Assembly: GCA_963768615.1 (NCBI GenBank)
Contig: CAVYIE010000007.1
Coordinates: 653,181 to 717,180, forward strand
Direction: 5' to 3'
Length of the DNA: 64,000 bases
From: Candidatus Eiseniibacteriota bacterium
GTDB taxonomy: Bacteria; Eisenbacteria; RBG-16-71-46; JABDJR01
The notes beneath the pieces are model-generated. The model worked only from the letters and a program-made list of their open reading frames with translations. It was not told the DNA's origin and did not search any database. Of the stretch, positions 13,679-60,322 are shown piece after piece. Position 1 is the first letter of the stretch, and each line of letters starts with the position of its first letter. The position numbers and the translations under genes are program-made.

Positions 13679-13969
13679 CTACCATTCCGCCTCGTCTTCC
13701 TCCTCTTCCTCCTCTTCCTCGAAGTCCTCGTCCTCGTCGTCGTCGTCGTCCCAGTCCTCGTCGTCGTCGTCGAAGTCCTCGTCGTCTTCGTCTTCTTCTT
13801 CTTCGTCGTCGTAGAGCTCGTCGTCTTCTTCTTCGTCGATCATATACACCTCATCGCTGCCGCATTCGGGACAATAGCGGATCACCTCGTCGGGGTTTTC
13901 CTCGGAGGCCTCCTCGTCGAAGGTCGTGCCGTCCTCGTCCGTGTACCCGCAGTTGTCGCACTGCCACAT
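13679..13969 (-). CDS. Small zinc-ribbon protein with a poly-acidic C-terminal tail
   Basis: ATG at 13969 preceded by GGAGGT. MWQCDNCGYTDEDG...RYCPECGSDEVYMIDEEEDDELYDDEEEEDEDDEDFDDDDEDWDDDDDEDEDFEEEEEEEEDEAEW has CxxC...CxxC followed by about 60 residues of D/E. ORF 13679..14107 as listed runs into the tRNA; the internal start is preferred. Confidence 0.6.
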   Translation of the reverse strand: MWQCDNCGYTDEDGTTFDEEASEENPDEVIRYCPECGSDEVYMIDEEEDDELYDDEEEEDEDDEDFDDDDEDWDDDDDEDEDFEEEEEEEEDEAEW

Positions 13970-14074
13970 GCCAGTACCTCCAGCTCTCGCCAAGTCCCAC
14001 AGTTCTGCACCGGGGGCCATGAGGGTACAACACACCCTCCGCACCGGTTCCACCCTTTTTCTGCCGGGAAGTGA

Positions 14075-14151
14075 TGGTGCCCCCGGGGTGACTCGAACAC
14101 CCGGCACGCGGTTTAGGAAACCGCTGCTCTATCCGCCTGAGCTACGGGGGC
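14075..14151 (-). tRNA. tRNA-Arg (anticodon CCT)
   Basis: Manual cloverleaf: GCCCCCG-TA-GCTC-AGGCGGATA-GAGC-A-GCGGT-TTCCTAA-ACCGC-GTGCC-GGGTG-TTCGAGT-CACCC-CGGGGGC-A-CCA. Confidence 0.9.
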
Positions 14152-14354: not shown

Positions 14355-15593
14355 TCAGGCGGCGTTCTTCACGTAGAGCTTCCGCAGTTCCACCCCGTCC
14401 ACGGAGGCCTTCCCGATGACCAGGCCGGTGGGCGAGGCCGCGGGCTGGAGCCGCAGGTACCAGGTCATGCGCTGGCGATTCAGGTCCAGTCGGTCCTGGG
14501 CCTTGAGCTTGCCCTCGGCCAGGGCCTGCACCTGGTCCTCGGGCACCACCAGGTCCTCGAGGAGGGCGCGGGGTCCGGGAGCCAGGGAGGCGGGATCCAG
14601 GGCCACGGCCACGTTCTCCGCCCGCAGCCGGAAGCCTTCGCCGTCCCTGACCACGAAGGCGTGCAGCGCCACCCGCTCCACCCCGCGCCAGGTCGCGCCC
14701 CGGTCGGCCCGGAACCCGCTGGCGTCGAGGTAGCCGGACCCGTCCCGCTCCTGGGTCATGGGTGGGCTCGCGCCCAGGGCCAGGGGAATGACGTCGACGT
14801 CCAGGTCGTCGTTTCCGCTCTCCTGAACGTCGCGGAGGATGGAGTCGAGGTGGTAGCGCGTCCCCTCGGTGCGGCTGAGATCGAAGCGCAGGGTGAGGGG
14901 CGCCGCCCCCCGGTCCCCTTTCACCAGGTCCTCGATGGATGCCTGGCGCAGCCCGGGAACACGAAGGTAGTAGTTCTCGACGATCGCGTTCCGGCCGATC
15001 CAGTGGGGCCAGCTGACCACGTTCACGGCCACGTAGCGGGAGTCGTCGGGGTTGACCAGCGCCGCCAGTCCGCCCGCGGCGGGGGGCGGGTTCCCGGCCC
15101 GGGCCACCACCTGGGCCAGGGACGCCTGCTGGGAATAGGAGCGGGTCATGTGATCCCGCGCCACTCCCACCACCGCCGCCAGCACCGCCAGCACGCCCAG
15201 GAACACGAAGGGGAGCACCACCTTCTGCTTCCGGGAGGGGGTCAGGGAGTGTTCGTGGAGCGCCGAGATGGTGCTCCCCGCCCCTGGCCCCGCCCCCCCG
15301 CCCGCCGCGGGAGAGGCGGCCTTGGCGTGCAGGGCCTCCATGTCGGCGACGTCCTTGACCGTGAGACCGGCGGCGGCGGCCTTCTCCCGGACCGCGGCCA
15401 CCTCCCCGGCGGTCATGGGGTCGGACCGGACCACCGAGTGCATGAAGTTGACCGCGTGGTAGCCCTTGATACCCAGATCCTGGATCAGCTTGCGGGCCTC
15501 GGTCTCCCCGCGCCCCATACCCGCCAGCTCCACCAGGCCCTTGCTGTCGATCCGCACCTCGACCGGATGGGTCTTCACAACCATCGTCATCAC
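14355..15593 (-). CDS. Hypothetical single-pass membrane protein (cytoplasmic N-domain of about 120 aa, one TM, periplasmic C-domain of about 270 aa)
   Basis: 412-aa ORF with ordinary, non-PGR-rich composition. TM segment VVLPFVFLGVLAVLAAVVGVA. No recognisable family. Transcribed divergently from the flippase/GT operon. Confidence 0.6.
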   Translation of the reverse strand: MMTMVVKTHPVEVRIDSKGLVELAGMGRGETEARKLIQDLGIKGYHAVNFMHSVVRSDPMTAGEVAAVREKAAAAGLTVKDVADMEALHAKAASPAAGGGAGPGAGSTISALHEHSLTPSRKQKVVLPFVFLGVLAVLAAVVGVARDHMTRSYSQQASLAQVVARAGNPPPAAGGLAALVNPDDSRYVAVNVVSWPHWIGRNAIVENYYLRVPGLRQASIEDLVKGDRGAAPLTLRFDLSRTEGTRYHLDSILRDVQESGNDDLDVDVIPLALGASPPMTQERDGSGYLDASGFRADRGATWRGVERVALHAFVVRDGEGFRLRAENVAVALDPASLAPGPRALLEDLVVPEDQVQALAEGKLKAQDRLDLNRQRMTWYLRLQPAASPTGLVIGKASVDGVELRKLYVKNAA

Positions 15594-15750
15594 CTGCCCT
15601 GTTCGATCCGGGACCGGAGCGGGCGGCTCCCGCGCCGGCTCGCGGATTCCTCCGATCCAACCTTCCCACCCGGTGGCGGGTTGCCCCTCCCCTCAAAATT
15701 CGAATTCACTTATGCTTCCCTCCGCAGGTCGACGGCCGCCGGTCCCCGCC

Positions 15751-15780
15751 TTGACACCGGACGGCTAAAAGGCGGAAAAT
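15751..15780 (+). promoter_or_regulatory. Putative promoter for the wzx-GT4-membrane-GT operon
   Basis: TTGACA at 15751-15756, 18-nt spacer, GAAAAT at 15775-15780. A 10-bp perfect palindrome AATTCGAATT lies at 15697-15706 in the divergent intergenic region. Confidence 0.25.
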
Positions 15781-15872
15781 TGTGCGCTTATGCGCGCCGG
15801 AGTTCTCCGGTGCGAGCCCGGGCCCGAAGCGGCCGGGGTGTCCGGACCCCCCGGGCCGGGCCGAAGGCGCGC

Positions 15873-17378
15873 GTGAGGCCCAACCCGAGACCCGATCGCC
15901 ACTTGAGCCAGAACAACTCCGAGTTCCTCCGCGGACTGCTCACCCTCACCCTCAGCCGCTACTTCGTCCGGGGCTTGAGCCTGCTCAAGGGCCTGGTGGT
16001 GGCCCGCGTCCTGGGCCCCAGCCTGTACGGGATGCTGGGGATCCTGGCCGTGTTCATGGGCTACAGCGCCTACGCCGACCTCGGCATCTTCGGCGGGCTC
16101 ACCAAGACCCTCCCCGTCCACCTCTCCCGCGAGGAGCGCGAGGAGATGGCCCGCCAGGAGGGAATCGGCTTCACCTCGGTCACCCTCCTCACCGTGCTCT
16201 TCGCGGCGGTGGTCATGGGGGTCATGTGGGAACGGGGGGCGGTGGTGAAGCGCGCCCTCCCCGCCCTGGCCTTCGCCATGATCGCCCAGCAGTTCTTCAA
16301 GTACTGCACGGTGCTGCTCCGGGCCCGGAGCCGGTTCGGCGAGACCGCCTTCGCGTGGAGCTTCCTCCAGATCCTGGACATGCTCTTCGTGCTCGCCCTG
16401 GTCTTCCCCCTCAACCTCACCGGGGTGTTCCTCGGCCAGGGGCTGGCCTTCACCGTGGCCGCGGCGGTCATCGCCCGCCGTAACCGGCTCGTCCCCCGCC
16501 TCATTCTCGACCCCCGCTTCTCCGCCGTGCTCATCCGGGCGGGCATCCCCCTGGTGGTCTCCACCCTCACCTTCCTCCTCCTGCAGACCGTGGACCGCTT
16601 CCTTATCGTGGGTTTCCTCAGCGCGGAGGCCCTGGGCCACTACATGATCGGGGTGTTCTGCGCCAACTTCATCTACTTCATCCCCCAGAGCCTGGGCTAC
16701 GTGCTGTTTCCCAACTTCCGGGAACGGCTGGCCGGCCTCGCCGAGGGCGAGCGCCCGCCGCTCCGGTACATCGAGCTTCCCACCCGGATGCTCTCCTATG
16801 TGCTCCCTCCCTTCACCGCCATGGTGTTCCTGGGCATTCCCGTCATCGGGCTCCTCCTGCCCGCCTACGTGCCGGGGTTGGAGAGCGCCCGCATCCTGGT
16901 CATGGGGACCTTCTTCCTCTCCCTGGTCACCAGCATCACCAGCTTCCTCATCGCCGCCGACCGCCACTGGTCTTTGATGGGGGTGCAGGTGGCGGCGGTG
17001 CTGATGGACTTGGGGCTCAACTACTTCGCCCTCCGGACCGGCCGCGGCATCGAGGGGGTGGCCCTGGCCACCGCCCTCTCCTACGTGTTCTACGCCACCG
17101 CCTCCCTGGCCCTGGCCTACCGCTACCTGCGCTTCCGCTGGGAGGCGATGACGCCCCGCCTGGGCCGGCTCTACGCCCCCTACCTGTACACCCTCGCCGC
17201 CGCGCTCCTGGTGGCCTCCTGGAGCCCCCTCGGGAACCCGGGTCCGGTGATCCTCACCGTGGTCCTGCGCGAGGTCGTCTTCCTGCTCGCCCTGCTCCCG
17301 GGAGTGTGGCTGCTCCAGCGCACCACCGGAGCGGTGGGCGAGGTGGCGGGCATGATCCGGAAGGCGGTGCGGACGTGA
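15873..17378 (+). CDS. Polysaccharide/oligosaccharide flippase, Wzx-like (MOP superfamily)
   Basis: About 500 aa with 12-14 TM helices. The N-terminus ...LLTLTLSRYFVRGLSLLKGLVVARVLGPSLYGMLGIL is typical of Wzx/RfbX-type polysaccharide biosynthesis proteins. Start at GTG 15873 or TTG 15903. Confidence 0.8.
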   Translation: MRPNPRPDRHLSQNNSEFLRGLLTLTLSRYFVRGLSLLKGLVVARVLGPSLYGMLGILAVFMGYSAYADLGIFGGLTKTLPVHLSREEREEMARQEGIGFTSVTLLTVLFAAVVMGVMWERGAVVKRALPALAFAMIAQQFFKYCTVLLRARSRFGETAFAWSFLQILDMLFVLALVFPLNLTGVFLGQGLAFTVAAAVIARRNRLVPRLILDPRFSAVLIRAGIPLVVSTLTFLLLQTVDRFLIVGFLSAEALGHYMIGVFCANFIYFIPQSLGYVLFPNFRERLAGLAEGERPPLRYIELPTRMLSYVLPPFTAMVFLGIPVIGLLLPAYVPGLESARILVMGTFFLSLVTSITSFLIAADRHWSLMGVQVAAVLMDLGLNYFALRTGRGIEGVALATALSYVFYATASLALAYRYLRFRWEAMTPRLGRLYAPYLYTLAAALLVASWSPLGNPGPVILTVVLREVVFLLALLPGVWLLQRTTGAVGEVAGMIRKAVRT

Positions 17379-18607
17379 GCGCCCCCCGCGTGCTCATGGT
17401 CATCCAGCGCTTCCGGCCCACCTTCACCGGGCACGGCATCCAGGTGGAGACCCTGGCCCGGGAGCTGGGCGCCCTGGGCGTCCGCACCGAGATCGTGACC
17501 CGGGCCCTGCCCGGGTCGCCGGAGCGGGAGGACGGTCCGGTGCCGGTGCGCCGCTTCCCCATGACCCCCACCCGGAATCCGGTCCGGCTCTGGTGGGAGC
17601 ACCGCCCGCTCCTGAACTACATCCGCGGCTCCGGGGACCGGTTCGACATCCTGCACGTGCACGGAGCGCCTCCCGGCCTCCCCTACCTGCTCGACGCCGG
17701 CCGCAAGGCGGGGCTTCGGACCGTGGTCACCAGCACCCTGCTCACCGCCGACGATCCCCTCTCCATCAAGGGACGGGGACGGCTGGCCGCGTGGCGGTTC
17801 AAGTCCTTGCGGGGGGCGGACCGGTTCGTGGCCATCTGCCCCGCCCTGCTCGACACCTACCCCGCCGCCGGCATCGACCCCGCCCGGGTCTCCCACATCC
17901 CGGTGGGCGTCTCGGTCCGGCGCTTCCACCCCCCCACCGACCGGGAGGCGGAGGCCGAGGCCCTGGGCTGGCCCCGGGACGTCCCCCGCGCGCTCTTCGT
18001 GGGAGGGGTGCTCCGGCGGAAGGGCGTGGACGTGCTGCTCAGCGCCTGGGAGCGGGTCCTGGCCCGTCTTCCCGAGGCCCGGCTGTACGTGGCCGGGCCC
18101 CTGGACTTCCCCCATGCCGCCGGGCCCGACGCCGAGGCCTTCGCCGAGGCCTGCCGCGAGCGGGCGGGGCGCCCGCCCCTGGCCGGGCGGGTGTTCCTGC
18201 TCGGCACCCGGGACGACACCGCCGCCCTCTACCGGGCCGCCCACGTGTTCGTGTTCCCCTCCCGGGTGGAGGGGTTCCCCAACGTGCTCCTGGAAACCCT
18301 GGCCTCGGCCACCCCGGCGGTGACCGCCCGCATTCCCGGCTCCACCGACGTGAGCGTGCGCGACGGGGAGAACGGCTTCGTGGTTCCCCAGGAGGATCCC
18401 GGGGCCCTGGCCGGCCGCGCGGTGCAGCTCCTCACCGACTCCGCCCTCCGGGACCGCTTCGCCGCCGCCGCCCGGGCCGACGCCGAGGCCCGCTTCGCCT
18501 TCCCGGTGGTGGCCCGCGCCCACCTGGAGCTCTACCGCCGCCTGCTGGACCCGGCCTCGCCGCCTCCGGCCGGCCCCGCGCCGGGAGCGAGCCGTGCCCA
18601 CCGCTGA
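17375..18607 (+). CDS. Glycosyltransferase family 4 (GT-B)
   Basis: The GTG start overlaps the flippase stop (GTGA). Contains ...VFVFPSRVEGFPNVLLETLASATPAV..., the E-x7-E motif of retaining GT4 enzymes. Confidence 0.85.
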   Translation: MSAPRVLMVIQRFRPTFTGHGIQVETLARELGALGVRTEIVTRALPGSPEREDGPVPVRRFPMTPTRNPVRLWWEHRPLLNYIRGSGDRFDILHVHGAPPGLPYLLDAGRKAGLRTVVTSTLLTADDPLSIKGRGRLAAWRFKSLRGADRFVAICPALLDTYPAAGIDPARVSHIPVGVSVRRFHPPTDREAEAEALGWPRDVPRALFVGGVLRRKGVDVLLSAWERVLARLPEARLYVAGPLDFPHAAGPDAEAFAEACRERAGRPPLAGRVFLLGTRDDTAALYRAAHVFVFPSRVEGFPNVLLETLASATPAVTARIPGSTDVSVRDGENGFVVPQEDPGALAGRAVQLLTDSALRDRFAAAARADAEARFAFPVVARAHLELYRRLLDPASPPPAGPAPGASRAHR

Positions 18608-21152
18608 GGCCGGCGGCGGACTCGGCGCCCTGCTTCGGTTCGCGCTCGCGGCCGGGGTATGGGTCCTTCCCGGTTTCGCTCTCCACCGCCTGGTCCATCG
18701 CCGCCGGGACGGGGATCCGCTCCTCGCCGTGGCCTTCGCCCCCGCCCTGGCCGCCTTCGCCACCACCGTGGCCGCCTTCCTCGCCCTGGCCACGGGCATT
18801 CCCGTGGTCCGCTTTCCCTGGGTGCTGCTGGTCCTGGCCGCGGCGGCGGCGGCGATCCTGGTGCTGGTGCGCTCCCGGCCCCCGGCCGGGGAACTCCCGG
18901 ACGCCCCTGGAGCCGCGGCCCGCTGGGTGGGTTTCCTGTCGGTGGCCCTGCTCGTTCTCGGCGGGGCCTGGGTGGGGGGAACGCTGCGGTTCACCACCGA
19001 CGCGCCCGACCACGTGGGCACCCTGCGGGAGATCCTGGCCTCGGGCCGGTACTTCCCCACCGAGGCCTTCCACCTCGGGGCGGGGATCCTCGGCGCCGAC
19101 CCCCGCAAGGGGCTCCTCCACCCGGTCTACGCCGCCCTGAGCCGGCTCGCCGGCCTGGACCCGGCCGCGTTCTGGCGCTGGCTGCCCGCCCTCACCGGCG
19201 CCTTCCCCTTCCTGGCCGGATACGGCTTCCTGCGGTCGGCGGGGTATCGGGCCGGCTGGGCCCTGGCCGGAGCCTGGGTCCTGACCCTGAGCTGGAACGG
19301 GGGTCCGGGGGGCGACCTCCTGGGCATCTCCGGCTATCCCAACCAGGTCGGGGCGGCCCTGTTCTGGCTCGGTTTCGGGGCCTCGATCGGCGCCCTCCGG
19401 CGGCCGGGGACGGGCGCGGTGGCCGCCGCGGCCATGGTGCTCGCGGCCGCGGTCACCGTCCATCCCATGTACGTGGTCTTCGTGGCCCTGCTCGGCGGGA
19501 TGCTCCTGCTCTACGCCCTGGGCCCCGCCCGGCCCCGGGGCCCCGCGCTCCGGGTGGTGGTGATCCTGGGCGCGGCCCTGGCCGTGGTCCTGGTCCCCTA
19601 CCTCCTCTATCGCTATACCCAGTACCGCCCCGGGAACCCCATTCACACCGCCGTCCAGGGGATGCTCTTCCTGGGCGACCGCACCTTCATCGCCGATCCC
19701 GGCCTCCTCTGGCGCCACCTGGGCTGGGCGGGGCTGGTGGGCTTCCCCGCCGCGGCGGTGGTGTTCCTGCCCCGCTGGCGTCGCGGAGCGGCCCCGTTCC
19801 TGATCGCGCTCGCCCTGGTGGCCATGGCCCTCCTCACCCTGAACCCGCTCTTCGTCCCCGTCCTCCAGGAGCGGCTCACCTACCTGGTGTTCCGGAGCCT
19901 GTGGATCCTCCCCGCCGGGCTGGCCGCGGGGGCGGCCCTGGGCCTGCTCGCCGCCGGGGAACGCGGGGCGCTGGGGGCGGGAGACTTCGCACCCGGGGCC
20001 CCGGCTTCCCCGGCCCCCGGGCCCGGGCGCCCGGCCCGGGCGGGGGCGCTCCTGGTCGCAGCCGCGGTGATCCTCCCCGCGGCCCTCTCGCTCCCCCGCT
20101 GGACGGAGCAGGCCCCGGCCCGGGACGGCATCGCGAACCCCCGGATCTGGCGGGCCGACCTGGCCGCGGTGGACGCCGCCCTTCCTCCACGCTCCACCGT
20201 GCTCTCGGACCCGGTGACGTCCTACCTGCTCCCCGCCTTCACCACCCAGCGCACCGTGGCCCCCTACGACCAGCACTCCTCCCCCAACGACTCCCTGGCC
20301 CTGGGCCGGATCCTGGCCGCCCGCGACGTGCTGAGCCCGGGGGTGCCGCTCCTCACCGCCTGGGAGACCGCCCGCCGCTGGGGCGCGGACTACGTGCTGG
20401 TCAACACCGCCTTTCCCGGGCCGGTCCGCACCGACTACTGGAGCTTCGACCGGAACGCGCTCCGGGCCCGGGAGCGCGCCTTCCGGGGCTCGCCGCTCTT
20501 CCGGCCGCTCCTGGACCGGGACGGGTTCGCGCTGTTCGCGGTGGCCCCCACCCTTCCCGATTCGCTGCCGCCCGAGGACCTGCGGAGCCCGGTCCTCACC
20601 GTGCCCGCGCCCCCGGGACCTCCGATCCTGGACCGCGAGGGCCTGGCCCTGGTCGGTGCCTCGGCCGGCCCCGACACCCTGAGCTGCCGGGACACCCTGG
20701 CCGTGCGGCTCACCTGGACCCCGACCCGGGCCGGGCTCCCTCCCGAACCGCTCCGGGCCTCGCTGCGACTGGACGCCCTCGACGCCCCCGGCCGAGGCCG
20801 TCCGGCGGAGAAGCTCCTCCGCAAGCTCGCCGCCGCCGCCACCGGGACCCGGTATCGCGCCCGCACCGACTGGATCCCTTCCGGGGGCCGTTTGGCCTTC
20901 GACCGCTGGACCCCGGGGCGGGCGATCACGGACACGGTGCGGATCCGCCCTCCCTGCGCCCTGGCCCCCGGGCGCTACGCGGTCACGGTGACGGTGAACC
21001 GCATCCCCCACATGCCCAACTACCGCCTGCGGGACTACCTGAGCAACCGGGACCTCTACGCCGGCCCCGCGGTGGACACGGTGACCGTGGTCCCGCGCCC
21101 GCTGACCGCCGCTAGCCGGCGGCGGTGTCCGCCGGCGACGAGGCCTCGGTGA
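18594..21152 (+). CDS. Polytopic membrane protein, putative GT-C-type glycosyltransferase with a C-terminal periplasmic domain (paralog of 6800..8857)
   Basis: 852 aa with more than 11 TM helices. The loop motif TTDAPDHVGTLREILASGRYFPTEAFHLGAG is close to the E. coli ArnT sequence [22 protein letters not shown]. A roughly 300-aa soluble C-terminus is present. The start overlaps the upstream GT4 stop. Confidence 0.65.
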   Translation: MPTAEAGGGLGALLRFALAAGVWVLPGFALHRLVHRRRDGDPLLAVAFAPALAAFATTVAAFLALATGIPVVRFPWVLLVLAAAAAAILVLVRSRPPAGELPDAPGAAARWVGFLSVALLVLGGAWVGGTLRFTTDAPDHVGTLREILASGRYFPTEAFHLGAGILGADPRKGLLHPVYAALSRLAGLDPAAFWRWLPALTGAFPFLAGYGFLRSAGYRAGWALAGAWVLTLSWNGGPGGDLLGISGYPNQVGAALFWLGFGASIGALRRPGTGAVAAAAMVLAAAVTVHPMYVVFVALLGGMLLLYALGPARPRGPALRVVVILGAALAVVLVPYLLYRYTQYRPGNPIHTAVQGMLFLGDRTFIADPGLLWRHLGWAGLVGFPAAAVVFLPRWRRGAAPFLIALALVAMALLTLNPLFVPVLQERLTYLVFRSLWILPAGLAAGAALGLLAAGERGALGAGDFAPGAPASPAPGPGRPARAGALLVAAAVILPAALSLPRWTEQAPARDGIANPRIWRADLAAVDAALPPRSTVLSDPVTSYLLPAFTTQRTVAPYDQHSSPNDSLALGRILAARDVLSPGVPLLTAWETARRWGADYVLVNTAFPGPVRTDYWSFDRNALRARERAFRGSPLFRPLLDRDGFALFAVAPTLPDSLPPEDLRSPVLTVPAPPGPPILDREGLALVGASAGPDTLSCRDTLAVRLTWTPTRAGLPPEPLRASLRLDALDAPGRGRPAEKLLRKLAAAATGTRYRARTDWIPSGGRLAFDRWTPGRAITDTVRIRPPCALAPGRYAVTVTVNRIPHMPNYRLRDYLSNRDLYAGPAVDTVTVVPRPLTAASRRRCPPATRPR

Positions 21153-22425
21153 CGGCGAGGCGGGCCAGGAGCAGATAGAGCAGGACGGCCCCGAAGAGCG
21201 GCAGCGAGACCAGGAGGTTGAACACCCGGCCGTGCCCGCCGCCCCCCACCCGGTAGTAGGCGTCGAAGAGGAAGAGGCCGCCCCAGGAGGCGGTCCAGAC
21301 CAGGAACCCGCCCACCGGCGCACCGGACCGCGCCCCCAGCCAGGCCGCGGCCACCGCGAAGGGCAGGGCCAGTCCCACCAGGTGATGGAGCCAGACGTTG
21401 GAGGCCCCCGAGAACACCCACACCGTGGCCAGGGCCAGGGCCAGCGGCTCGCCCCACTCCCCGCCGCGGCGGCGGAGCCGGTCGGCCAGGACCAGGGTGA
21501 CCGCCATCCAGGCCAGGAGCACCGCCCGGGCCGCCCAGGCCGTCGCGGTGGGAATGGGCAGTACCGACCAGTGGCGGGGGCTGGTGGCGTCCATCCACCG
21601 GAGGATGAGGCCGGTGACCGACTGGTTGGAGGAGAGGGTGGTGCTCAGTTTCACGTAGTCGAGCATGAGGTGGAGGTAGCGGAGGTGGGCCTCCCAGCCC
21701 GCCGCGGCCAGGCTCACCCCGAGGAGCAGCGCTCCGCCGAGCGCGAAGGCGGCCAGCGCCCGCCACCGGCGCATGACCAGGAGGTAGGGCACGAAGAGGA
21801 TGGGAAAGAGCTTCATCCCGGTCACGAAGGCCAGCCACAGCCCGGCCTGGATGTCCCGCCGGCGCCACAGCGCGTGGGCGAAGAGCACGATCAGGAGCAG
21901 CACCGGCACGCTGGCCTGCCCGGCGCGGATGGCCTGGAGGAACGGGGTGGTGTGGATGAGGAGCGCGAAGGAGCCGGCGGCGGCGGGCCAGCCCCATCCG
22001 GGGAGGGACCTGGCGAGGAGGAAGAGGGCGGCCAGGGCCAGGATCCAGTTCACCAGGTAGACCACGACCAGGGCCCGGTACGGGGAGAGGCCGGCCACGG
22101 GGACGTAGAGGAGGCCGACCCAGGGCGGATAGATGTAGTAGCTGGTGTCCTCGATGCCCGCCCCGGCGCCGATGGCGGCGAATCGGCTCCCGGGGAAGCG
22201 CCGGGTGGTGAGCCCGGTCATGATGTCGGTGAAGTAGAGGGCATCGGGCTCGCGCTCCATGAGCACCCGCGCGGCGATGTAGTACTGGGCGAAGTCCTTG
22301 GGGACCGGCTTGGAGGGGCCGGGAAACTCGCGCAGGAAGACCATCAGGCCCTGCAGGGCCAGGACCGACGCCACCAGGAGCAGCAGGGGCCGGCCCAGGG
22401 CCGGCGTCCGGACTCGAGCGTGCAT
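21112..22425 (-). CDS. DUF2029/GT87-like membrane glycosyltransferase (PimE-like, polyprenyl-phosphate-sugar dependent)
   Basis: True start MHARVRTPALGRPLLLLVASVLALQ... at ATG 22425. An N-terminal TM is followed by KDFAQYYIAARVLMEREPDALYF, the characteristic loop-1 motif of the family. Roughly 10 TM helices. The upstream part of ORF 21112..22719 is an artefact. Confidence 0.6.
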   Translation of the reverse strand: MHARVRTPALGRPLLLLVASVLALQGLMVFLREFPGPSKPVPKDFAQYYIAARVLMEREPDALYFTDIMTGLTTRRFPGSRFAAIGAGAGIEDTSYYIYPPWVGLLYVPVAGLSPYRALVVVYLVNWILALAALFLLARSLPGWGWPAAAGSFALLIHTTPFLQAIRAGQASVPVLLLIVLFAHALWRRRDIQAGLWLAFVTGMKLFPILFVPYLLVMRRWRALAAFALGGALLLGVSLAAAGWEAHLRYLHLMLDYVKLSTTLSSNQSVTGLILRWMDATSPRHWSVLPIPTATAWAARAVLLAWMAVTLVLADRLRRRGGEWGEPLALALATVWVFSGASNVWLHHLVGLALPFAVAAAWLGARSGAPVGGFLVWTASWGGLFLFDAYYRVGGGGHGRVFNLLVSLPLFGAVLLYLLLARLAVTEASSPADTAAG

Positions 22426-22648
22426 GAAGGGACACTCCGTTCCGGGGGACTGGGGGCGGGCCGCCCCGCCGGCGAGCCCGGGCCCGCGCCGGCGCCGTTC
22501 GAGGTCCCGTTTATAGGCGAGGGACGGGCCGCGGTCAACCGGCGGCGTGGGGCCGGGGCGGCGCGAACCCGCCCGGAGCGATGGCTGCGCGTACCGGCGG
22601 CATCCCCGGCACGGGGTCATTTTTCCCCGTCCCCGGCCTCTGGCGCTC

Positions 22649-22657
22649 TGGTAGAAT
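22649..22657 (+). promoter_or_regulatory. Extended -10 element (TGgTAGAAT) about 10 nt upstream of the gmd ATG
   Basis: TG at 22649-22650 and TAGAAT at 22652-22657; the gmd start is at 22667. Implies a very short or leaderless 5' UTR. Confidence 0.3.
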
Positions 22658-22666
22658 ATTCGCCCT

Positions 22667-23692
22667 ATGAACGACTCCCCCCCCTCGCCACGCAAGAAGG
22701 CGCTGATCACCGGCGTCACCGGACAGGACGGCTCCTACCTCGCCGAGCTGCTGCTGGAGAAGGGCTACGACGTCCACGGCGTGGTACGCCGGGTGAGCGT
22801 GTTCAACCGGCAGCGGATCGACGCCCTCTATCCCGGGCCCCAGGCCTCGGGATCCCACTTCCAGCTCTACTACGGGGACCTGGCCGACTCCAACGTCCTC
22901 ATCTCCCTGGTGGCCAAGCTCCAGCCGGACGAGATCTACCACCTCGCCGCCCAGAGCCACGTGCGGGTGAGCTTCGACATCCCGGAGTACACCGCCAACG
23001 TCACCGCCATCGGCACCCTGAGGATGCTGGAGGCCATCCGCCTGGAGAGCCCGAAGTCCAAGCTCTACCAGGCCTCCTCCTCGGAGATGTTCGGGGCCGC
23101 GCCGCCGCCCCAGAACGAGAAGACCCCCTTCGAGCCCCAGAGCCCCTACGGGGCGGCCAAGGTCTTCGCCCACCACGTGGGCAAGAACTACCGCGAGGGG
23201 TACGGGTTGTGGGTGTGCTCGGGGATCCTCTTCAACCACGAGTCCCCCCGCCGGGGCGAGGCTTTCGTCTCCCGCAAGATCACCCGCTCGGTGGCCCGCA
23301 TCGCCAACGGGCTCCAGGACTACCTCTACCTGGGGAACCTGGACGCCAAACGCGACTGGGGCTACGCTCCCGAGTACGTGGAGGCGATGTGGCGAATGGT
23401 GCAAATCGGGGAGCCCGACGACTTCGTGATCGCCACCGGCGAGGCCCACACCGTACGCGAGTTCCTCATCGAGGCCTTCAACCACGTGAACCTCGACTGG
23501 GAGAAGTACGTGCGCATCGACAAGCGCTACCTCCGCCCCTCCGACGTCTGGCACCTGGAGGGGGACGCCTCCAAGGCGGAGAAGGCACTGGGCTGGAAGC
23601 CCGCCACCACCTTCAAGGACCTGGTCCGGATCATGATGGAGGCCGATCTCCGCGCCGCCCGCAAGGAGAGAGCGGCCAAGGAGACGGACTGA
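22667..23692 (+). CDS. gmd: GDP-mannose 4,6-dehydratase
   Basis: 341 aa [28 protein letters not shown]...[37 protein letters not shown]. Confidence 0.95.
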
Positions 23693-23699
23693 GCCGCCG

Positions 23700-24650
23700 G
23701 TGATGGCCTCCGGATTCTGGCGCGAGCGGACGGTGCTGATCACCGGGGGCGGAGGCTTCCTGGGCTCCCACCTGGTCCGCGCCCTGCGCGCCCACGGGGT
23801 GGACGCCGCCCGCCTCCGCGCCCCCTCCTCCTCCGAGGCCGATCTCCGGGACCGGGCCGCCTGCGCCCGGGCGGTGCGCGGGGCCCAGGTGGTGATCCAC
23901 GCCGCGGGCCGCATCGGGGGTATCGGGCTCAACCGCGAACGCCCCGGTGAGCTCTTCTTCGAGAACGCCCTCATGGGCATCCAGCTCATGGACGAGGCCC
24001 GGCGGGCCGGGGTGGAGCGCTTCGTGACCGTGGGCACCACCTGCGAGTACCCCAAGATCACCCCCGTCCCCTTCCGGGAGGACGCCCTCTGGGACGGCTA
24101 CCCGGACGAGGTCACCGGCCCCTACGGCCTGGCCAAGAAGATGCTCCTGGTCCAGGGGCGGACCTACCGGGACCAGTACGGCTTCCGCTCCGTTCACCTC
24201 ATTCCCACCAACCTCTACGGGCCCGGGGACCATTTCGACGAGGTCCACGGCCACGTCATCCCCTCCCTCATCAAGCGGTTCTCCGAGGCCGCCGACCGGG
24301 GCGACGAGGCGGTGACGGTGTGGGGCACGGGCCGGGCCACCCGGGAGTTCCTCTACGTGGAGGATGCGGCGCGGGGCATCGTGCTCGCCGCCGAGCGCTA
24401 CGACCACCCCGACCCGGTGAACCTGGGCTCGGGGATCGAGACCCCCATCCGCGACCTGGCCGCCCGCATCGCCGCCCTCACCGGGTTCGGCGGGGAGATC
24501 CGCTGGGACGCGGACAAACCCGACGGCCAGCCCCGGCGGAGCCTGGACGTCTCCCGGGCGCGGGAGGCCTTCGGGTTCACCGCCGAAACCGGCCTGGACC
24601 AGGGCCTGGCCCGCACCGTGGACTGGTACCGGGAGCACCGGAATCAATGA
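23700..24650 (+). CDS. fcl: GDP-L-fucose synthase (GDP-4-keto-6-deoxy-D-mannose 3,5-epimerase/4-reductase)
   Basis: 316 aa VLITGGGGFLGSHLV...YGLAKKMLLVQGRTYRDQYGFRSVHLIPTNLYGPGDHFD. Lies immediately after gmd. Confidence 0.9.
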   Translation: MMASGFWRERTVLITGGGGFLGSHLVRALRAHGVDAARLRAPSSSEADLRDRAACARAVRGAQVVIHAAGRIGGIGLNRERPGELFFENALMGIQLMDEARRAGVERFVTVGTTCEYPKITPVPFREDALWDGYPDEVTGPYGLAKKMLLVQGRTYRDQYGFRSVHLIPTNLYGPGDHFDEVHGHVIPSLIKRFSEAADRGDEAVTVWGTGRATREFLYVEDAARGIVLAAERYDHPDPVNLGSGIETPIRDLAARIAALTGFGGEIRWDADKPDGQPRRSLDVSRAREAFGFTAETGLDQGLARTVDWYREHRNQ

Positions 24651-25432
24651 GCGACACCCACTCCCGCCGCCCCACCCTGACCCTGGTCATCCCCACCCGG
24701 GACGAGAAGGGGAACATCGAGCCCGCGGTGGCCCGCTGCCCGGACTTCGGCACCGAGGTGGAGCTCCTCTTCGTGGACGGCAACTCCACCGATGGGACCC
24801 TGGAGGAGCTGGCCCGGGTGGCCGCGGCCTATCCCGACCGGCGGATCAGCTACTTCACCCAGGAGGGGAAGGGCAAGCGGATCGCGGTGTGGCAGGGCTT
24901 CGAGCGGGCCCGGGGAGAGGTGGTGATGATCCTGGACGGGGACATTACCGTGCCCCCGGAGGAGCTTCCCGCCCTCTACGAGATCCTGACCGGCGGGCCC
25001 CACCTCTTCGTCAACGCCACCCGGTTCCGGTACCCCATGGAGCCGGGAGCGATGCAGCTCCCCAACCACCTGGCCAACCGGTTCTTCGCCCTCTTCGTGA
25101 GCCTGATCACCGGACAGTGGTTCTCGGACACCCTCTGCGGCACCAAGGGGCTCTGGAAGAGCGCCTTCCTGCGGCTCCGGGACGAGGGGTTCCTGGCCGG
25201 CATGGACCGCTACGGGGATCACGAGCTCATCCTGGGGGCCTGGAACCTGGGCATGACCATCGTGGAGGCGCCGGTCCACTACCGGGCCCGCCTCTACGGA
25301 GAGGCCAAGATCGCCAACCAGAAGTTCTCCGGGGGAACCGCGTTCCTGAAGCTGGACCTGGCCGCGCTCAAACATCGATTCCTGGGCCGGCGCCGCCGCC
25401 GGACCTTCGCGCCCCTGACCCCGACCGACTGA
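24647..25432 (+). CDS. Glycosyltransferase family 2, DPM1-like polyprenyl-phosphate glycosyltransferase
   Basis: ATG at 24647 overlaps the fcl stop (ATGA). 261 aa LTLVIPTRDEKGNIEPAV...ELLFVDGNSTDGT...ILDGDITVPPEELP (DxD). Confidence 0.85.
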   Translation: MSDTHSRRPTLTLVIPTRDEKGNIEPAVARCPDFGTEVELLFVDGNSTDGTLEELARVAAAYPDRRISYFTQEGKGKRIAVWQGFERARGEVVMILDGDITVPPEELPALYEILTGGPHLFVNATRFRYPMEPGAMQLPNHLANRFFALFVSLITGQWFSDTLCGTKGLWKSAFLRLRDEGFLAGMDRYGDHELILGAWNLGMTIVEAPVHYRARLYGEAKIANQKFSGGTAFLKLDLAALKHRFLGRRRRRTFAPLTPTD

Positions 25433-25503
25433 GCCGGAGGGCGGACCGTCCGGAGCCGTCCGGGCTCCCCCCGCCGATCCCCCCCGGCGGCCGAGGAGAG
25501 CCC

Positions 25504-27046
25504 ATGTCCGATTCACGCCCCGCCGCCGAAACCACCCGCCGCGCCCCCCTGGAGATGGATCCCGAGACCTTCCGCGCCCTGGGCCGGGCCGCGGTGGACC
25601 GGATCGCCGACTTCCTGGCCGCCATGCCCCGGGGCCCGGTGACCCGGGGGGAGTCCCCCAGCGCGGTCCGCGAGGCGCTGGGCACCGGCGCCCTCCCCGC
25701 CGAGGGGACGCCGCCGGATGCGCTCCTGGAGGACACCGCGCGGCTTCTGTTCGAGCACTCGCTCTTCAACGGACACCCCCGCTTCCTGGGCTACATCACC
25801 GCCTCGGCGGCGCCGATCGGGGCCCTGGGGGACCTCCTGGCCGCGGCGGTGAACCCCAACGCCGGGGCCTCGATCCTCTCCCCCGCCGCCACCGAGATCG
25901 AAGCCCAGACCGTGCGCTGGATCGCCGAGCTGATCGGATTCCCCGCCCGGGGCGCGGGCGGGCTCATGGTGAGCGGGGGGAACCTGGCCAACATCGTCCC
26001 CTTCCTGGCCGCCCGCCGGGCCAAGGCGGACTGGGACCTGCGCTCCGAGGGGGTCGCCGCCGGCCCCCCCATGACCTGCTACGCCTCCGAGCGCACCCAC
26101 ACCTGGATCCAGAAGGCGGCCGACCTGGCCGGACTGGGCACCGAGGCGATACGGTGGATCCGGGTCGACCGCGACCACCGCATGGAGCCGGACGGCCCTG
26201 GCCGAGGCGGTGGCGCGGGACCGGGCGGCGGGGGCCCGTCCCTTCCTGGTGGTGGGGGCCGGGGGCACGGTGGAGGTGGGGGCGGTGGACCCCCTGCCCA
26301 CCCTGGCCGCCTTCTGCCGGGAGCAGGACCTGTGGTTCCACGTGGACGGGGCCTACGGCGCCATCGCGGCCGCGCTCCCCGAGGCCCCGGCCGACCTGAA
26401 GGGGCTGGCCGAGGCCGACTCGGTGGCGGTGGACCCCCACAAGTGGCTCTACGCCCCCCTGGAGGCGGGCTGCGTGCTCGTCCGCGATCCCGCCACCCTC
26501 CTGGACGCGTTCAGCTTCCACCCCGAGTACTACCGGATGGAGGTGCCCGGCCAGGAGCCGCGGCTGAACTACTTCGACTTCGGGCTCCAGAACTCGCGGG
26601 GGTTCCGGGCGCTCAAGGTGTGGCTGGCCCTGCGGCAGGTCGGCCGGGCCGGGTACCAGCGCATGCTCCGGGAGGACATCGAGCTGGCCGAACGCCTGTT
26701 CCGGAACGCCGCCGACCACCCCGAGCTGGAGGCGTTCACCCGGAACCTCTCCATCACCACCTTCCGCTTCGTGCCCCGGGATCTGCGCGGGCGTGCGGCG
26801 GAGCCGCCGGTCGCGGACTACCTGAACGGGCTCAACCAGGAGCTCCTGGACCGGCTCCAGGCCGGGGGCGAGGTGTTCGTCTCCAACGCGGTGCTGGAGG
26901 AGCGCTACGCCCTCCGCTCCTGCGTGGTCAACTTCCGCACCTCGGGAGGGGACATGGACGCCATTCCGGGGATCGTGGTCCGGATCGGGCGGGAGGTCGA
27001 CCGGGAGCGGCGTCCGGCCTCGCTGCGGGCGGACCGTTCCCGGTGA
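25504..27046 (+). CDS. Group II PLP-dependent decarboxylase (aromatic-L-amino-acid/glutamate decarboxylase family), with an apparent +1 frameshift near 26194
   Basis: The N-terminal half is in the 24889..27612 frame (MSDSRPAAETTRR...HPRFLGYITASAAPIGALGDLL...RVDRDHRMEPD). The C-terminal half is ORF 26210..27046 (HVDGAYGAIAAALPE...DSVAVDPHKWLYAPLEAGCVLVRD, with the PLP lysine in DPHKW). The frames join if one G is removed from gacGgcc at 26191-26196. Confidence 0.75.
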
Positions 27047-30000
27047 CCGGCCGCAGGCGGGCACCGTTCCGCCGCCGGCCGGTCAGGCCTGGGGGCTCCC
27101 GGCCGGGGTTCCAGGACGCCCGGATGAACTCGGCCGCGTCGGCCCCCTTGGGCACGAACGCCACCGCCCCCGCCTTCCGCATCCGGTCCGCCGTGGCCCT
27201 GGTTTCCTGGATGGACATGCCGATCACCCGGATCTCCGGGCGGCGCCGGAGGATCTCCCGGGTGGCCTCGGTCCCTCCCATGCGGGGCATGTTGACGTCC
27301 ATGAGCACCACGTCCGGACGCTCCCGCTCGACGACGGCGATCGCTTCCGTACCGTCCGCCGCCTCGGCGACCACCCGGATCCCGGGCTCCTCCTGCAGCA
27401 TCCTGCAGATTCCCTGCCGCACGACGGCATGGTCGTCCACGACCAGCACCCGGATCTGCCCCTCCGCCTGGGAGAGCATCGGCAGCGCGTCCGCCGGCGC
27501 CCGGCGGTCCGGATGGGTTGGCTCCGCGGCGACGTGGATCGGCAGCTCCAGGGAAACCCGGGTTCCCTTCCCCGGAGCCGAATCCACCTGCATGCGACCC
27601 CCCAGTCCGTAGATCCGCTCGCGGAGATGGTGGAGCCCGAACCCGGCGGGCGAAGCCTCGGGCTGGTTCGAGTCCGGATCGAAGCCCACCCCCCCGTCCG
27701 CCACCGTGATCCGGATCCAGCTCCCCACCGTCTCCACCCGCACCTCGGCCCGGTCGACCGAGGCGTGCTTCACCACGTTGAACAGGAGCTCGCGAACGCC
27801 CTGGAAGAGGAAGCTCGCGACCTCGTCCCGGGGGATGACCGGATTCTCGCCGGCGTGGAGCGCCACCTCCAACCGGAGCAGGCGGGTCATATCCCGGCCG
27901 AGCCAGCGGAGGGCGGGGACCAGTCCCTCCTCGAACAGCACCGGCGGATGCAGCTCCTGGGCCAGTTCCCGGGAGCAGGCCACCGCCCGGTCCATCATCT
28001 CCGCAGCCTCCCTCCGGGCATCCTCGACCGCCTGCGCCCCCTGCGACGGATCCAGGTCGCTCAACCGCATCTTGGCCCCCACCAGCCACTGCTGGAGATC
28101 GTCGTGGAGGATCGAGGCCAGCCGCCGGCGTTCGCGTTGTTCGGCGGAAGCGAGCTCGCGGGCCAATTTCCGGAGCCGGGAGGCCTGATTCTCGAGTTCC
28201 CGGGTGCGCTCCAACACCCGCCGCTCGAGATCGTCCCGGGTCTCGCGCAGATCGTCCTCCATCCGCCTCCGTTCGGAGATGTCGACGAAGGTGATGACCA
28301 CCCCGTCGATCCGGTCCTCGGCGGTCCGGTAGGGCAGGACCCGGGTCAGATACCATCCCCGTTCTCGCTCTGGATCTCGCGTTCCACCGGGACCAGCCGG
28401 TCGAGCACCGCCCGGGCGTCGTCCTGGAGATCCCGCGGACCCAGCCGGTGGGTAAGATCCCCGAGGGGCCGGCCCCGGTCGGCGACCCGGATGCTGAACA
28501 GGTCGGCCACCCGGGGGGTGAACCGCACGATGTGCAGGTTCCGGTCCAGGAACAGGGTGGCGATATCGATGGCGGTGAGGAGGTTCTGCAGGTCGGCGCT
28601 GACGCTGAGCCAGCTCCACCAGCCGGTGGCGGTTCTCCTGGTTGACCGTGCTCAACTCCTCGTTGACGCTCTGCAGCTCTTCCTTGCTGGTCTCCAGCTC
28701 CTCCAGGGTGGACCGGAGCTCCTCGTTGGTGCTCTGCAGCTCCTCGAAGGAGGTCTGCATCTCCTCCTGGGAGGTCTCGTAGTCCTCGATCGCCGTCCGC
28801 AGCCGCTCCCGGGTGTGCTCCAGCTCAAGCTCCAGCTCGCGGATGGTGGCGTCGGACTTGGGCCGGTCCGCTTCCGGAGTGGATTCCGGGAAGTTCGAAG
28901 CCTCCTCGAACATGACCAGGAACAGGTCGTCCTGATCCGGTTCCTCCACCCGCCGGGCCCGGACCGTCACCTTCCGGGCCTCTCCTCCGATCTCCATCCG
29001 CACCGGGTTCCCCTTCACCGTGCCCGGATTCTCCCGGGCGGCGTGGAGCACGGCACGGACCTCGGCCCGGAGAGGATTCCGGACCACCTTCAGGAGGCTG
29101 TTGGTCGGCTCCCCCCCGGGGAGATGCAGGTACCGCCCCGCCCCGCTCGAGGAGTGGAGGATCCGGAGATCATCGGTGACGAGCACGCTCGGCGGGGCAT
29201 AGCGCTCAACCAGCCGTTCGTGCAGGGCGCCGTGTTCCCGGGGCCGGGGGCGGGACCGGGCCGGACCCAGCTCCGGCTTCCCCGGCGGCCCGAACACGCT
29301 CCGGGCGGTCATGGGGAGGTGCAGCTCCCGCGCCGGCACGTTGCGCCGCCGGTACAACCGGTGCTCCTTGTTCTCGGGCAGGAACAGGTTGGATCGGTCC
29401 ACGGACTCGCTGGAACCCAGGAGGAGGAGGCCGTCGGGATTGAGCGCGTAGTGGAGAAGGGTGAGCACTTCGCCCTGGGCCTCACGTTCGAGGTAGATGA
29501 GCAGGTTCCGGCAGCTGACGAGGTCGATGTGGGCGAAGGGCGGATCCCGGAGCAGGTTGTGGGGGGCGAAGACGATCGCCTCCCGGAGGTTCTTCCGGAC
29601 CCGGTAGGTGCTGTCCTCCTTGGCGAAGAACCGGCGCAGCCGTTCGGGGCCCACGCTCTCCCGGATCGACTCCGGATAGACGCCCTCCCGGGCCTTGCGG
29701 AGGGAGAGATCGTGCAGATCGCTGGCGAAGATCTGGATCCGGGGAGAGTCGTTCCTCCGGGTCGCCGCTTCCAGGAGAACCATGGCCAGGGAGTAGGCCT
29801 CCTCCCCGGTCGCACAGCCGATGGACCAGATCCGGATGTGGTCCTCCGACCCCTTGCCCTGGAAGAGGCGGGGGAGGACGTCCTGCTCGAGGAACTCGTA
29901 GGTGGAGGGATCCCGGAAGAACTGGGTCACGGTGATCAGGAGGTCGTCGGCCAGATTCCCGGCCTCCTCCCGGTGCTCGCGGACGATCTCGAGGTAGGCG

Positions 30001-50868: not shown

Positions 50869-50873
50869 CGTCC

Positions 50874-51302: not shown

Positions 51303-51312
51303 CTTCGGCCTC

Positions 51313-51693: not shown

Positions 51694-51694
51694 G

Positions 51695-54328: not shown

Positions 54329-54358
54329 GCGGTCCGGGGATTCCCGGACGTGGATCGG

Positions 54359-54395: not shown

Positions 54396-54417
54396 TCCGG
54401 CGCGCGCCGGGAGGCGG

Positions 54418-60312: not shown

Positions 60313-60322
60313 GTCTTCCTCC

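Follow-up and report, generated by a model that had tools for sequence, protein, structure and literature searches.

Can fucose be handed over as a polyprenyl-phosphate sugar, and which enzymes would make and use such a donor? The question is raised by a gene cluster of a Candidatus Eiseniibacteriota bacterium, at positions 14355-27046 of a stretch of 64,000 nucleotides from contig CAVYIE010000007.1, the whole of which is here called the window. A small glycosyltransferase of family GT2 is encoded there directly behind gmd and fcl, close to a Wzx-like flippase and to polytopic membrane proteins, one of 852 amino acids (aa), here named M852, and one of the glycosyltransferase (GT) family GT87. 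An earlier reading made from the letters alone (the sequence-only reading) had described two divergent operons that form one glycosylation pathway with a fucose lipid as donor. The order that we found was G1 (minus strand), divergent from Wzx-GT4-M852 (plus), which is convergent with GT87 (minus), itself divergent from gmd-fcl-GT2 (plus), and this does not agree with two divergent operons (Table 1).

The cluster is composed of two modules. Module A comprises Wzx, GT4 and the GT-C-type M852, together with three genes located elsewhere in the window for a second GT4 (GT4b), an M852 paralogue of 685 aa (M685) and a second small GT2 (GT2b). Module B comprises GT87 and the divergently encoded gmd-fcl-GT2. 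A single pathway was not supported by the comparison with other loci, where the M852 module and the gmd-fcl-GT2 module occur separately. We regard the whole explanation developed below, two envelope-glycan modules of which module B would use a fucose-lipid donor, as evenly balanced between being right and being wrong.

The fcl-coupled GT2 and its linkage to gmd and fcl

The start codon of the GT2 gene overlaps the stop codon of fcl (ATGA, 24647-24650), as the sequence-only reading had noted. In the PDB the GT2 sequence matched PfDPMS, the dolichol-phosphate mannose (Dol-P-Man) synthase of Pyrococcus (1e-12), and ArnC (3.5e-11, full length). Its LDGDITVPPEE aligned with DADLQHPPE of DPMS and DADLQNPPEE of ArnC, and its C-terminal motif VEAPVHYRARLYGEAK with IEIPVHHAEREFGESK of ArnC and VEVPFTFGIRARGESK of DPMS. 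The acceptor-side motif (V/I)E(V/I)P(V/F)x(Y/F)xxRxxGESK was found in the GT2, in the DPM1-type form RxYGE(A/S)K, and R215, G218 and K221 were invariant in 20 members of the clade. When the AlphaFold2 model of the GT2 (pLDDT 84) was used as a query in Foldseek, ranks 1-12 were all polyprenyl-phosphate glycosyltransferases, with ArnC as the best match (3e-14, TMq 0.67-0.69), DPMS at 1e-11 and GtrB at 1e-9, and PcManGT and WrtF came next. On its nearest sequences and predicted structures the GT2 is thus predicted to be a polyprenyl-phosphate glycosyltransferase of the DPM1/ArnC/GtrB type, which agrees with the DPM1-like assignment made earlier. No transmembrane (TM) segment was predicted in the GT2; the lack of its own TM helices makes this membership less certain but does not exclude it. 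Some members of the DPM1 family, human DPM1 among them, also have no TM helices and lean on partner proteins.

The structural match to WrtF (1e-8), accompanied by a weak match in sequence (E 0.004), brings in a different explanation, in which the GT2 would be a soluble fucosyltransferase acting before Wzx on a cytoplasmic lipid-linked oligosaccharide, with no fucose-lipid donor involved. WrtF, itself of the GT2 family, hands fucose straight from GDP-fucose to a glycan; like WbdO and Bf4306 it has the GT-A fold and is encoded together with GDP-fucose genes such as gmd and fcl (PMC12595478). The window GT2 shares this gene context, and a protein without TM segment would fit a soluble enzyme. However, ArnC, DPMS and GtrB are far better matches over the whole length, and the E-value of the best structural match is lower than that of WrtF by a factor of about a million. 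WrtF-type enzymes have no DxD and carry a C-terminal helical bundle (PMC12595478), whereas the GT2 has DGD...PPEE as well as RxYGEAK. The wider family of the GT2 is moreover encoded beside PF03706 proteins and large polytopic proteins of GT-C type (see below), which a cytoplasmic fucosyltransferase would not need. We consider direct fucosylation by the GT2 very unlikely.

The product of the fcl-family gene had GDP-L-fucose synthases as all of its 18 best PDB matches (3e-57; E. coli GMER 4.5e-52). When it was aligned to the best of these, 8du0, its T-x-C, its YxxxK and its His in 'HVIPSLI' fell on the corresponding residues. A scan of species-representative genomes for the GT2 clade gave 80 loci of 20 kb, 57 of them with full flanks. 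The fcl gene was found directly upstream of the GT2 in an uncultured bacterium (83% GT2 identity), in two metagenome-assembled genomes (MAGs) of Eisenbacteria (77% and 76%) and in a Planctomycetota MAG (63%); in Desulfatiglans anilini (69%) the upstream neighbour is also of the Fcl family. The wider GT2 family (43-50% identity) was met in Alphaproteobacteria, Marinimicrobia, Thermodesulfobacteriota, Omnitrophota and one Woesearchaeota MAG, mostly as a fusion of about 490 aa in which an N-terminal S-adenosylmethionine-dependent methyltransferase (MT) precedes a C-terminal GT2 part. Recurring around it were a 247-aa methyltransferase (46 loci), a flippase-like protein of PF03706 (LPG_synthase_TM; 25 loci), gmd, fcl-like genes and large polytopic proteins, including GT-C proteins of PMT type.

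Among the 57 loci with full flanks, 20 have gmd no farther than 3 kb from the GT2 (23 of the 25 gmd hits were that close), and 37 encode, at no greater distance, a polytopic protein with 400 aa or more and 7 or more TM segments; PMT-type and TPR-tailed GT-C-like proteins are among these. As a rough control, gmd was found in none of the 22 loci with another small GT2, of the GT2b type (Fisher p about 9e-4). The gmd-fcl-GT2 linkage is therefore kept far beyond the Eisenbacteria lineage, and this cross-lineage linkage to gmd and fcl is the strongest evidence from which we infer that the clade would use a GDP-6-deoxyhexose and feed a flippase and GT-C route.

Four loci of marine Rhodospirillaceae MAGs (L019, L024, L025, L035) present the linkage in its most compact form. 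At about 8-13.5 kb of the locus they carry the five genes PF03706, MT-GT2, 247-aa MT, gmd and fcl-like, set among genes for TerC, enoyl-CoA hydratase, cupin, TauD, DUF1611, SLT and MIP proteins, and no glycosyltransferase besides the MT-GT2 was found within 10 kb. This module is a candidate for the minimal unit that makes a lipid-linked 6-deoxyhexose or methyl-6-deoxyhexose.

In one Planctomycetota locus (L008) and two of Thermodesulfobacteriota (L038, L039), fcl-GT2 or MT-GT2 directly adjoins the gene of a polytopic, 630-705-aa protein that ends in a TPR array. This layout may resemble that of the TMTC-type GT-C protein O-mannosyltransferases.

The membrane glycosyltransferases and the two modules

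M852 gave no match in Pfam or NCBIfam, and against the PDB sequences neither the single protein nor a profile gave a usable one. Its AlphaFold2 model, built on 13 homologues, reached a pLDDT of 85.5 and a pTM of 0.88, the top 20 Foldseek matches of the model were all GT-C proteins, and ArnT was among the GT-C matches. The model comprises a multi-TM GT-C architecture and a C-terminal periplasmic alpha/beta plus beta-sandwich domain. The earlier suggestion of a GT-C-like motif in this protein was in this way strengthened, and judged by its model M852 is a glycosyltransferase with the GT-C fold, from a family without a Pfam entry. The loop motif DAPDH contains two acidic residues, D136 and D139, that were invariant in 31 M852 homologues (21-57% identity); the model places them in an N-terminal extracytoplasmic loop, and they may be catalytic. 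A word-indexed search had returned only 13 proteins, but the full HMMER search gave 1599 matches, with 344 clusters of 50% identity at E<1e-30, and we rejected the notion of a rare orphan.

M685 was aligned to the M852 family by hhalign with a probability of 97.6% (E 2.7e-12, 553 columns), and the alignment takes in the loop motif (SDAWFHTAVV / DAPDHVGTLRE). It is 49% identical to a 655-aa gene product that adjoins GT87 in the related locus L088, and is a candidate for the third protein of GT-C type by this sequence relationship. Three such membrane proteins had been expected within the cluster; two of them, M852 and GT87, lie there, and the third, M685, lies outside. The GT87/DUF2029 assignment was confirmed by its Pfam score (Table 1). 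Against the PimE equivalog NF009915 the GT87 reached 38 bits (cut-off 413), and it gave no usable PDB sequence match as a single or profile query.

A metagenome scan with the M852 family (an alignment of 14 sequences) provided 80 loci (L091-L170). Around the M852 homologues a conserved order was found, namely small GT2 - Wzx - (M685-like) - M852 - GT4 - GT4b. Of the 45 loci with 2 kb or more of sequence upstream of the M852 homologue, 31 had Wzx there; of the 32 with 4.5 kb or more, 18 had a small DPM1-like GT2 ahead of Wzx-M852; and of the 42 with 2.5 kb or more downstream, 34 had a GT4 on that side. GT4b-like genes follow in 32 of all 80. Most of the small upstream GT2s were like GT2b (34-45% identical), the rest of the type seen in locus L090, where a GT2 of 223 aa is translationally coupled to the M852 homologue. 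In the 21 loci with at least 4.5 kb of flank on both sides, neither an fcl-coupled GT2 nor a GT87 was near the M852 homologue; across all 80 loci, too, this GT2, GT87 and an orthologous gmd (at least 45% identity) were each found in none. The conserved pairing of gmd-fcl-GT2 with the M852-type GT-C, which the sequence-only reading had led us to expect, was thus not observed.

GT2b matched PfDPMS over its full length (2e-11), and its best NCBIfam matches were PpgS, Dol-P-hexose transferase and AglJ. Its gene adjoins surE (surE-pcm) and is conserved in all relatives, including locus L087. L087 keeps the big GT-C (M799), two GT4s and GT2b; GT87, gmd, fcl and GT2 are missing together. Because the small GT2 of the M852 operons is mostly of GT2b type, a small GT2 is coupled to the M852 homologue in L090 and the genes of module B were lost jointly in L087, the most likely partners of M852 and M685 are GT2b and the Wzx-like protein, and GT2b is likely the lipid-sugar synthase of this module. 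The small GT2-Wzx-(M685-like)-M852-GT4-GT4b operon appears to be a widespread, uncharacterised glycoconjugate pathway in its own right. GT87 stands beside gmd-fcl-GT2 in the related loci L001/L006, L085/L086 and L088/L089, and is the best, though not an obligatory, candidate user of the product of the fcl-coupled GT2.

The prominence of Wzx in these operons might also be explained by en-bloc transfer: the GT4s would assemble an undecaprenyl-diphosphate (Und-PP) oligosaccharide on an initiating phosphoglycosyl transferase (PGT) encoded elsewhere, Wzx would flip it, M852 and M685 would transfer it to a protein or a lipid as oligosaccharyltransferase- or ligase-type enzymes, and the small GT2s would only provide side decorations. 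Flippases of the Wzx family normally serve Und-PP-oligosaccharides and are the most conserved neighbours of M852, and Bac_transf genes lie near in L090, L154 and L170. On the other hand, a WWDxG-type motif was absent from all 31 M852-family and all 3 M685-family sequences, on which ground M852 was rejected as a canonical oligosaccharyltransferase (GT66). M852 also differs from STT3, AglB and PglB in an identity of only about 10-15%, the missing PDB sequence match and its typical partners, which include a small DPM1-like GT2. Such a GT2 as a frequent operon partner, coupled to the GT-C in L090, is typical of GT-C enzymes that use monosaccharide-phosphate lipids. Bac_transf was near only 2 of the 80 M852 loci, and tblastn, at limited sensitivity, found no match to polyisoprenyl-phosphate hexose-1-phosphate transferases (PHPT, Bac_transf), Wzz, Wzy_C or Poly_export in the window, WecA-type polyisoprenyl-phosphate N-acetylhexosamine-1-phosphate transferases (PNPT) not being included in the search. 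The absence of Wzy, Wzz and an initiating enzyme claimed earlier agrees with this search as regards Wzy_C, Wzz and PHPT. Of the components of a Wzx/Wzy-dependent O-antigen or exopolysaccharide cluster, Wzx was present and matches to Wzy, Wzz and PHPT were not found in the 64 kb. We hold transfer en bloc by module A to be quite unlikely.

The donor sugar of the GT2

In the explanation that we prefer, both modules would serve glycosylation at the periplasmic side of the cytoplasmic membrane. In module A the GT4 enzymes would build a membrane-anchored glycan in the cytoplasm, GT2b would make a polyprenyl-phosphate sugar, the MOP-family flippase would carry the lipid-linked intermediate across the membrane, and the GT-C paralogues M852 and M685 would glycosylate a periplasmic acceptor, which may be a lipoglycan, lipopolysaccharide (LPS) or protein. 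In module B, Gmd and Fcl would provide GDP-L-fucose, from which the fcl-coupled GT2 would move the 6-deoxyhexose onto polyprenyl phosphate at the inner membrane face. The resulting polyprenyl-phosphate fucose would be moved across by a flippase, for which the Wzx-like protein is the only candidate here, and a GT-C enzyme, GT87 in the Eisenbacteria lineage, would fucosylate the same or a related glycoconjugate. The enzyme classes, the GT-C fold of M852, the gene overlaps, the synteny and the linkage across phyla are shown by the analysis; the donor sugar, the pairing of GT-C and donor, the flippase of module B and the acceptor are the parts of this scheme that we infer.

Several points weigh against a fucose lipid. 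No polyprenyl- or undecaprenyl-phosphate fucose was met in the literature searched, which means a lack of precedent as well as a possible novelty. The fcl-family product scores 250 bits with NF047922, below the curated cut-off of 500, and in about two-thirds of the GT2-family loci gmd is missing from the 10 kb around the GT2. A flippase of GtrA or PF03706 type for module B is not present in the window. In locus L007 gmd-fcl-GT2 is accompanied by an M685-like protein, without GT87, and the pairing with GT87 is thus not strict.

Further points on this side are those that favour a rival explanation, in which the GT2 would be a polyprenyl-phosphate mannose synthase that takes GDP-mannose and feeds GT87 and other GT-C enzymes, as in the actinobacterial pathway of phosphatidylinositol mannosides, lipomannan and lipoarabinomannan (PIM/LM/LAM). 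The gmd and fcl genes would then only share the GDP-mannose pool and supply fucose to another fucosyltransferase. GDP-mannose is the substrate of Gmd, and the co-location could reflect a shared supply of precursor. To our knowledge GT87 is only known as a family of mannosyltransferases that depend on polyprenyl-phosphate mannose, which all characterised members (PimE, Rv2181, Rv1635c) use. The top sequence match of the GT2 is a Dol-P-Man synthase, and ManC is sometimes encoded in the loci of the wider family. The GT2 also retains the canonical DxD, like DPMS, and the study on WrtF argued that a DxD is geometrically suited to axial alpha-D donors, GDP-mannose among them, and has been lost by the GT2-family fucosyltransferases (PMC12595478).

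Against a mannose synthase stands GT2b, which is already present 12 kb away and conserved in every relative; with two DPM1-like GT2s encoded in one genome, a redundant mannose-lipid synthase is less likely. No further enzyme of a class known to use GDP-fucose is encoded in the cluster, whose GT4s are retaining GT-B enzymes, and in the Rhodospirillaceae loci the GT2 is the sole glycosyltransferase beside gmd-fcl. Linkage to gmd and fcl (20 of 57 loci) is far commoner than linkage to ManC, which was found in 7 loci of the wider family, and the joint loss of GT87, gmd, fcl and GT2 in L087 points in the same direction. The objection from the DxD is soft, because GT2 rhamnosyltransferases with a DxD use beta-L donors such as dTDP-L-rhamnose. 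No defensible discriminator of the donor sugar was found in the GT2 sequence. We judge the mannose-synthase explanation unlikely, though one to be reckoned with.

The polyprenyl-phosphate-fucose hypothesis consequently survives and is better supported than it was by the sequence-only reading; we give it slightly less than an even chance. The broader proposal, that a distinct and widespread clade of DPM1-like GT2 enzymes makes a polyprenyl-phosphate 6-deoxyhexose donor from the products of gmd-fcl, with PF03706 or MOP-family transport and diverse GT-C users, including non-actinobacterial GT87, in many phyla, is put forward tentatively, with doubt somewhat outweighing belief. For the methyltransferase-fused GT2s the donor may possibly be an O-methylated 6-deoxyhexose.

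Genomic setting and relation to known systems

At a G+C content of about 72%, long spurious open reading frames (ORFs) are common in the window, and reading frames were chosen by third-position G+C and by alignment to orthologues; gene labels within the cluster were taken from Pfam and NCBIfam profile searches. The gene set given earlier proved largely real by frame plot and profile searches, as for Wzx, GT4, M852, GT87, gmd, fcl and GT2. The Wzx start, a TTG, was inferred from the orthologue alignment; the GT4 start overlaps the Wzx stop (GTGA), M852 and GT87 overlap by 41 nt, and a 241-bp spacer separates GT87 from gmd. The overlap of the M685 start with the GT4b stop (ATGA) indicates translational coupling.

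Table 1. Positions of the cluster genes and of other features in the window.
Feature	Position	Strand	Basis or remark
GT4b, second GT4, outside the cluster	5610-6803	+	Pfam Glyco_trans_4_4, Glyco_transf_4, Glycos_transf_1
M685, 685-aa polytopic protein, 14 predicted TM, M852 paralogue	6800-8857	+	hhalign to M852 family
Small ORF between tRNA-Val and tRNA-Arg	13679-14107	-	sub-threshold zinc-ribbon-type Pfam matches only
tRNA-Arg(CCT)	14075-14151	-	ARAGORN; flanks the cluster
G1, 412 aa, one predicted TM	14355-15593	-	frame plot; divergent from Wzx
Wzx-like MOP-family flippase, 491 aa	15903-17378	+	PF01943 40.8 bits, cut-off 28.2
GT4 (GT-B, retaining-type), cytoplasmic	17375-18607	+	Pfam Glyco_trans_1_4 1e-30, Glyco_trans_4_4 6e-21
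M852, 852-aa polytopic protein	18594-21152	+	GT-C fold predicted by model; no Pfam match
GT87/DUF2029 GT-C membrane glycosyltransferase, 437 aa	21112-22425	-	PF09594 94.4 bits, cut-off 25
gmd, GDP-mannose 4,6-dehydratase	22667-23692	+	TIGR01472 479.6 bits, cut-off 415
fcl-family GDP-4-keto-6-deoxymannose 3,5-epimerase/4-reductase (probable GDP-L-fucose synthase)	23700-24650	+	NF047922, PDB matches
GT2, 261 aa, TM-less, predicted DPM1/ArnC/GtrB type	24647-25432	+	PF00535 77.7 bits
Group II pyridoxal-phosphate decarboxylase, frameshifted	25504-27046	+	PF00282 split over two frames
CheB/CheR-PAS-histidine kinase-receiver gene	27123-30736		frame changes near 30290, 28604 and 28350
GT2b, second small DPM1-like GT2, about 230 aa	36744-37442	-	PfDPMS match, full length
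Lipid A/core genes: lpxD, lpxC-fabZ fusion (440 aa), lpxA, lpxK, waaA, GFO/IDH oxidoreductase, GT9 heptosyltransferase-like	47213-62736

The cluster had been taken for an accessory island beginning after a tRNA gene. Its G+C of 0.68-0.77 is like the rest of the window, and we compared three independent relatives, L085 (JGI 3300057004), L088 (JGI 3300048074) and L001/L006 (labelled Candidatus Eisenbacteria). In L085 and L088 the block lies in the same place, and L001, without upstream flank, shows the downstream part only. The shared order runs from pheS-rplT-rpmI-infC-thrS over tRNA-Val, a small ORF, tRNA-Arg(CCT), G1, Wzx, GT4 and the large GT-C to GT87, gmd, fcl, GT2, phosphoribosyltransferase, sigma-70, acylphosphatase, PCMT, SurE and the second small GT2, with protein identities of 47-91% to the window. 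L085 has the same pair of tRNA-Val and tRNA-Arg(CCT) upstream of its G1 orthologue, and its Wzx is 76% identical over the full length. The GT4b-M685 pair lies between the large GT-C and GT87 in L001 and L088, whereas in the window and L085 the pheS-thrS block separates it from them. Because the G+C is unremarkable and the same block between thrS and sigma-70 occurs with the same tRNAs in the relatives, the island reading was rejected; the tRNA-Arg next to the cluster is real, as conserved synteny and not as a mark of insertion. The lipid A genes of the window identify the organism as a diderm with LPS, which is available as a possible acceptor. We concluded that an LPS-making diderm, most likely Candidatus Eisenbacteria-like, carries here a chromosomal envelope-glycan locus that is conserved within its lineage.

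G1 was confirmed as a single-pass, divergently transcribed protein, with its predicted TM at residues 122-140. It had no Pfam or NCBIfam match, and a search of 5.8 billion proteins gave only four homologues, lineage-restricted and none with a Pfam domain; orthologues of 409-412 aa (45-47% identity) hold the same position in L085 and L088. The C-terminal 44 residues encoded by the small ORF between the two tRNA genes are 93% identical to a 107-aa gene product at the same position in L085. ARAGORN also called a tRNA-Pro at 12902-12983 of L085, within the gene for GT87, which in such G+C-rich coding DNA is probably a false positive.

An intact group II decarboxylase had been listed as a member of the cluster. 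Positions 11-181 of PF00282 were found in 25504-26200 and positions 182-360 in another frame, in 26159-27046; removal of one extra G at 26194 restores a decarboxylase ORF of 513 aa. The gene is absent at the corresponding position in L001, L085 and L088, every relative compared, and was on both grounds rejected as a pathway member. The adjacent CheB/CheR hybrid kinase has a gap of about 130 aa against the 1405-aa L001 orthologue. In total four frame disruptions lie within about 5 kb, and none in the neighbouring 10 kb of glycan genes, which align to their orthologues over the full length. Random assembly error seems unlikely and local decay more likely because the disruptions are clustered beside these intact 10 kb; the sequences suggest that the decarboxylase and the kinase are decaying lineage-specific insertions outside the pathway.

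Among known systems, the three-component periplasmic glycosylation by GtrA, GtrB and GtrC uses undecaprenyl-phosphate (Und-P) glucose on the O-antigen of Shigella and Salmonella (reviewed in PMC11127046). The combination of a GT2 polyprenyl-phosphate sugar synthase, a variable GT-C and a flippase is alike, the GT2 is structurally similar to GtrB, and flippase-like and GT-C-type proteins are neighbours of its wider family. However, the window GT2 has no TM helices, GtrA is missing from the window and replaced by a PF03706-type protein in the wider family, the linkage points to a GDP-6-deoxyhexose instead of UDP-glucose as donor, and the locus is chromosomal and lineage-conserved, not phage-borne. 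The ArnC/ArnT system, which uses Und-P-4-amino-4-deoxy-L-arabinose (L-Ara4N) on lipid A, provides the best structural match for the GT2 and one of the GT-C matches for M852, and in both cases genes for tailoring of the sugar nucleotide share the operon of the GT2. ArnC differs in its C-terminal TM helices and its UDP-sugar, and equivalents of arnA, arnB and arnD are lacking here.

The enzyme set, by analogy and with no match to PHPT, Wzy or Wzz, resembles the PIM/LM/LAM logic more closely than an O-antigen cluster. That pathway employs PimA and PimB' (GT4), Ppm1 (GT2), PimE (GT87) and MptA/B (GT-C), for which two GT4s, one or two DPM1-like GT2s, GT87 and further GT-Cs are found here; that no PGT, Wzy or Wzz was found would fit a lipid-anchored glycan that is begun in the cytoplasm and lengthened outside with polyprenyl-phosphate sugars as donors. 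The differences are that lipid A genes mark the organism as a diderm, that GT87 scores far below the PimE cut-off (38 against 413 bits), that gmd-fcl is in an operon with the GT2 and that a flippase of the MOP family is encoded. LPS or a protein would be just as possible as the acceptor.

Known lipid-monophosphate sugar donors of extracytoplasmic glycosylation carry hexoses, hexosamines, Ara4N, galacturonic acid or pentofuranoses, and no lipid donor of fucose or of another GDP-derived 6-deoxyhexose was found in the literature searched. The analysis defines a Pfam-less GT-C family of at least 344 clusters at 50% identity, with a conserved GT2-Wzx-GT-C-GT4 operon that is usually without PGT or polymerase. 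If the fcl-coupled GT2 does make a fucose lipid, this would add a new branch to the three-component scheme of glycosylation and would give a function to GT87/DUF2029 proteins outside Actinobacteria. The combination of this GT2 clade with gmd-fcl and a flippase-like protein would then be a signature, and one that already points to loci by the hundred, in Alphaproteobacteria, Marinimicrobia, Desulfobacterota, Planctomycetota and candidate phyla.

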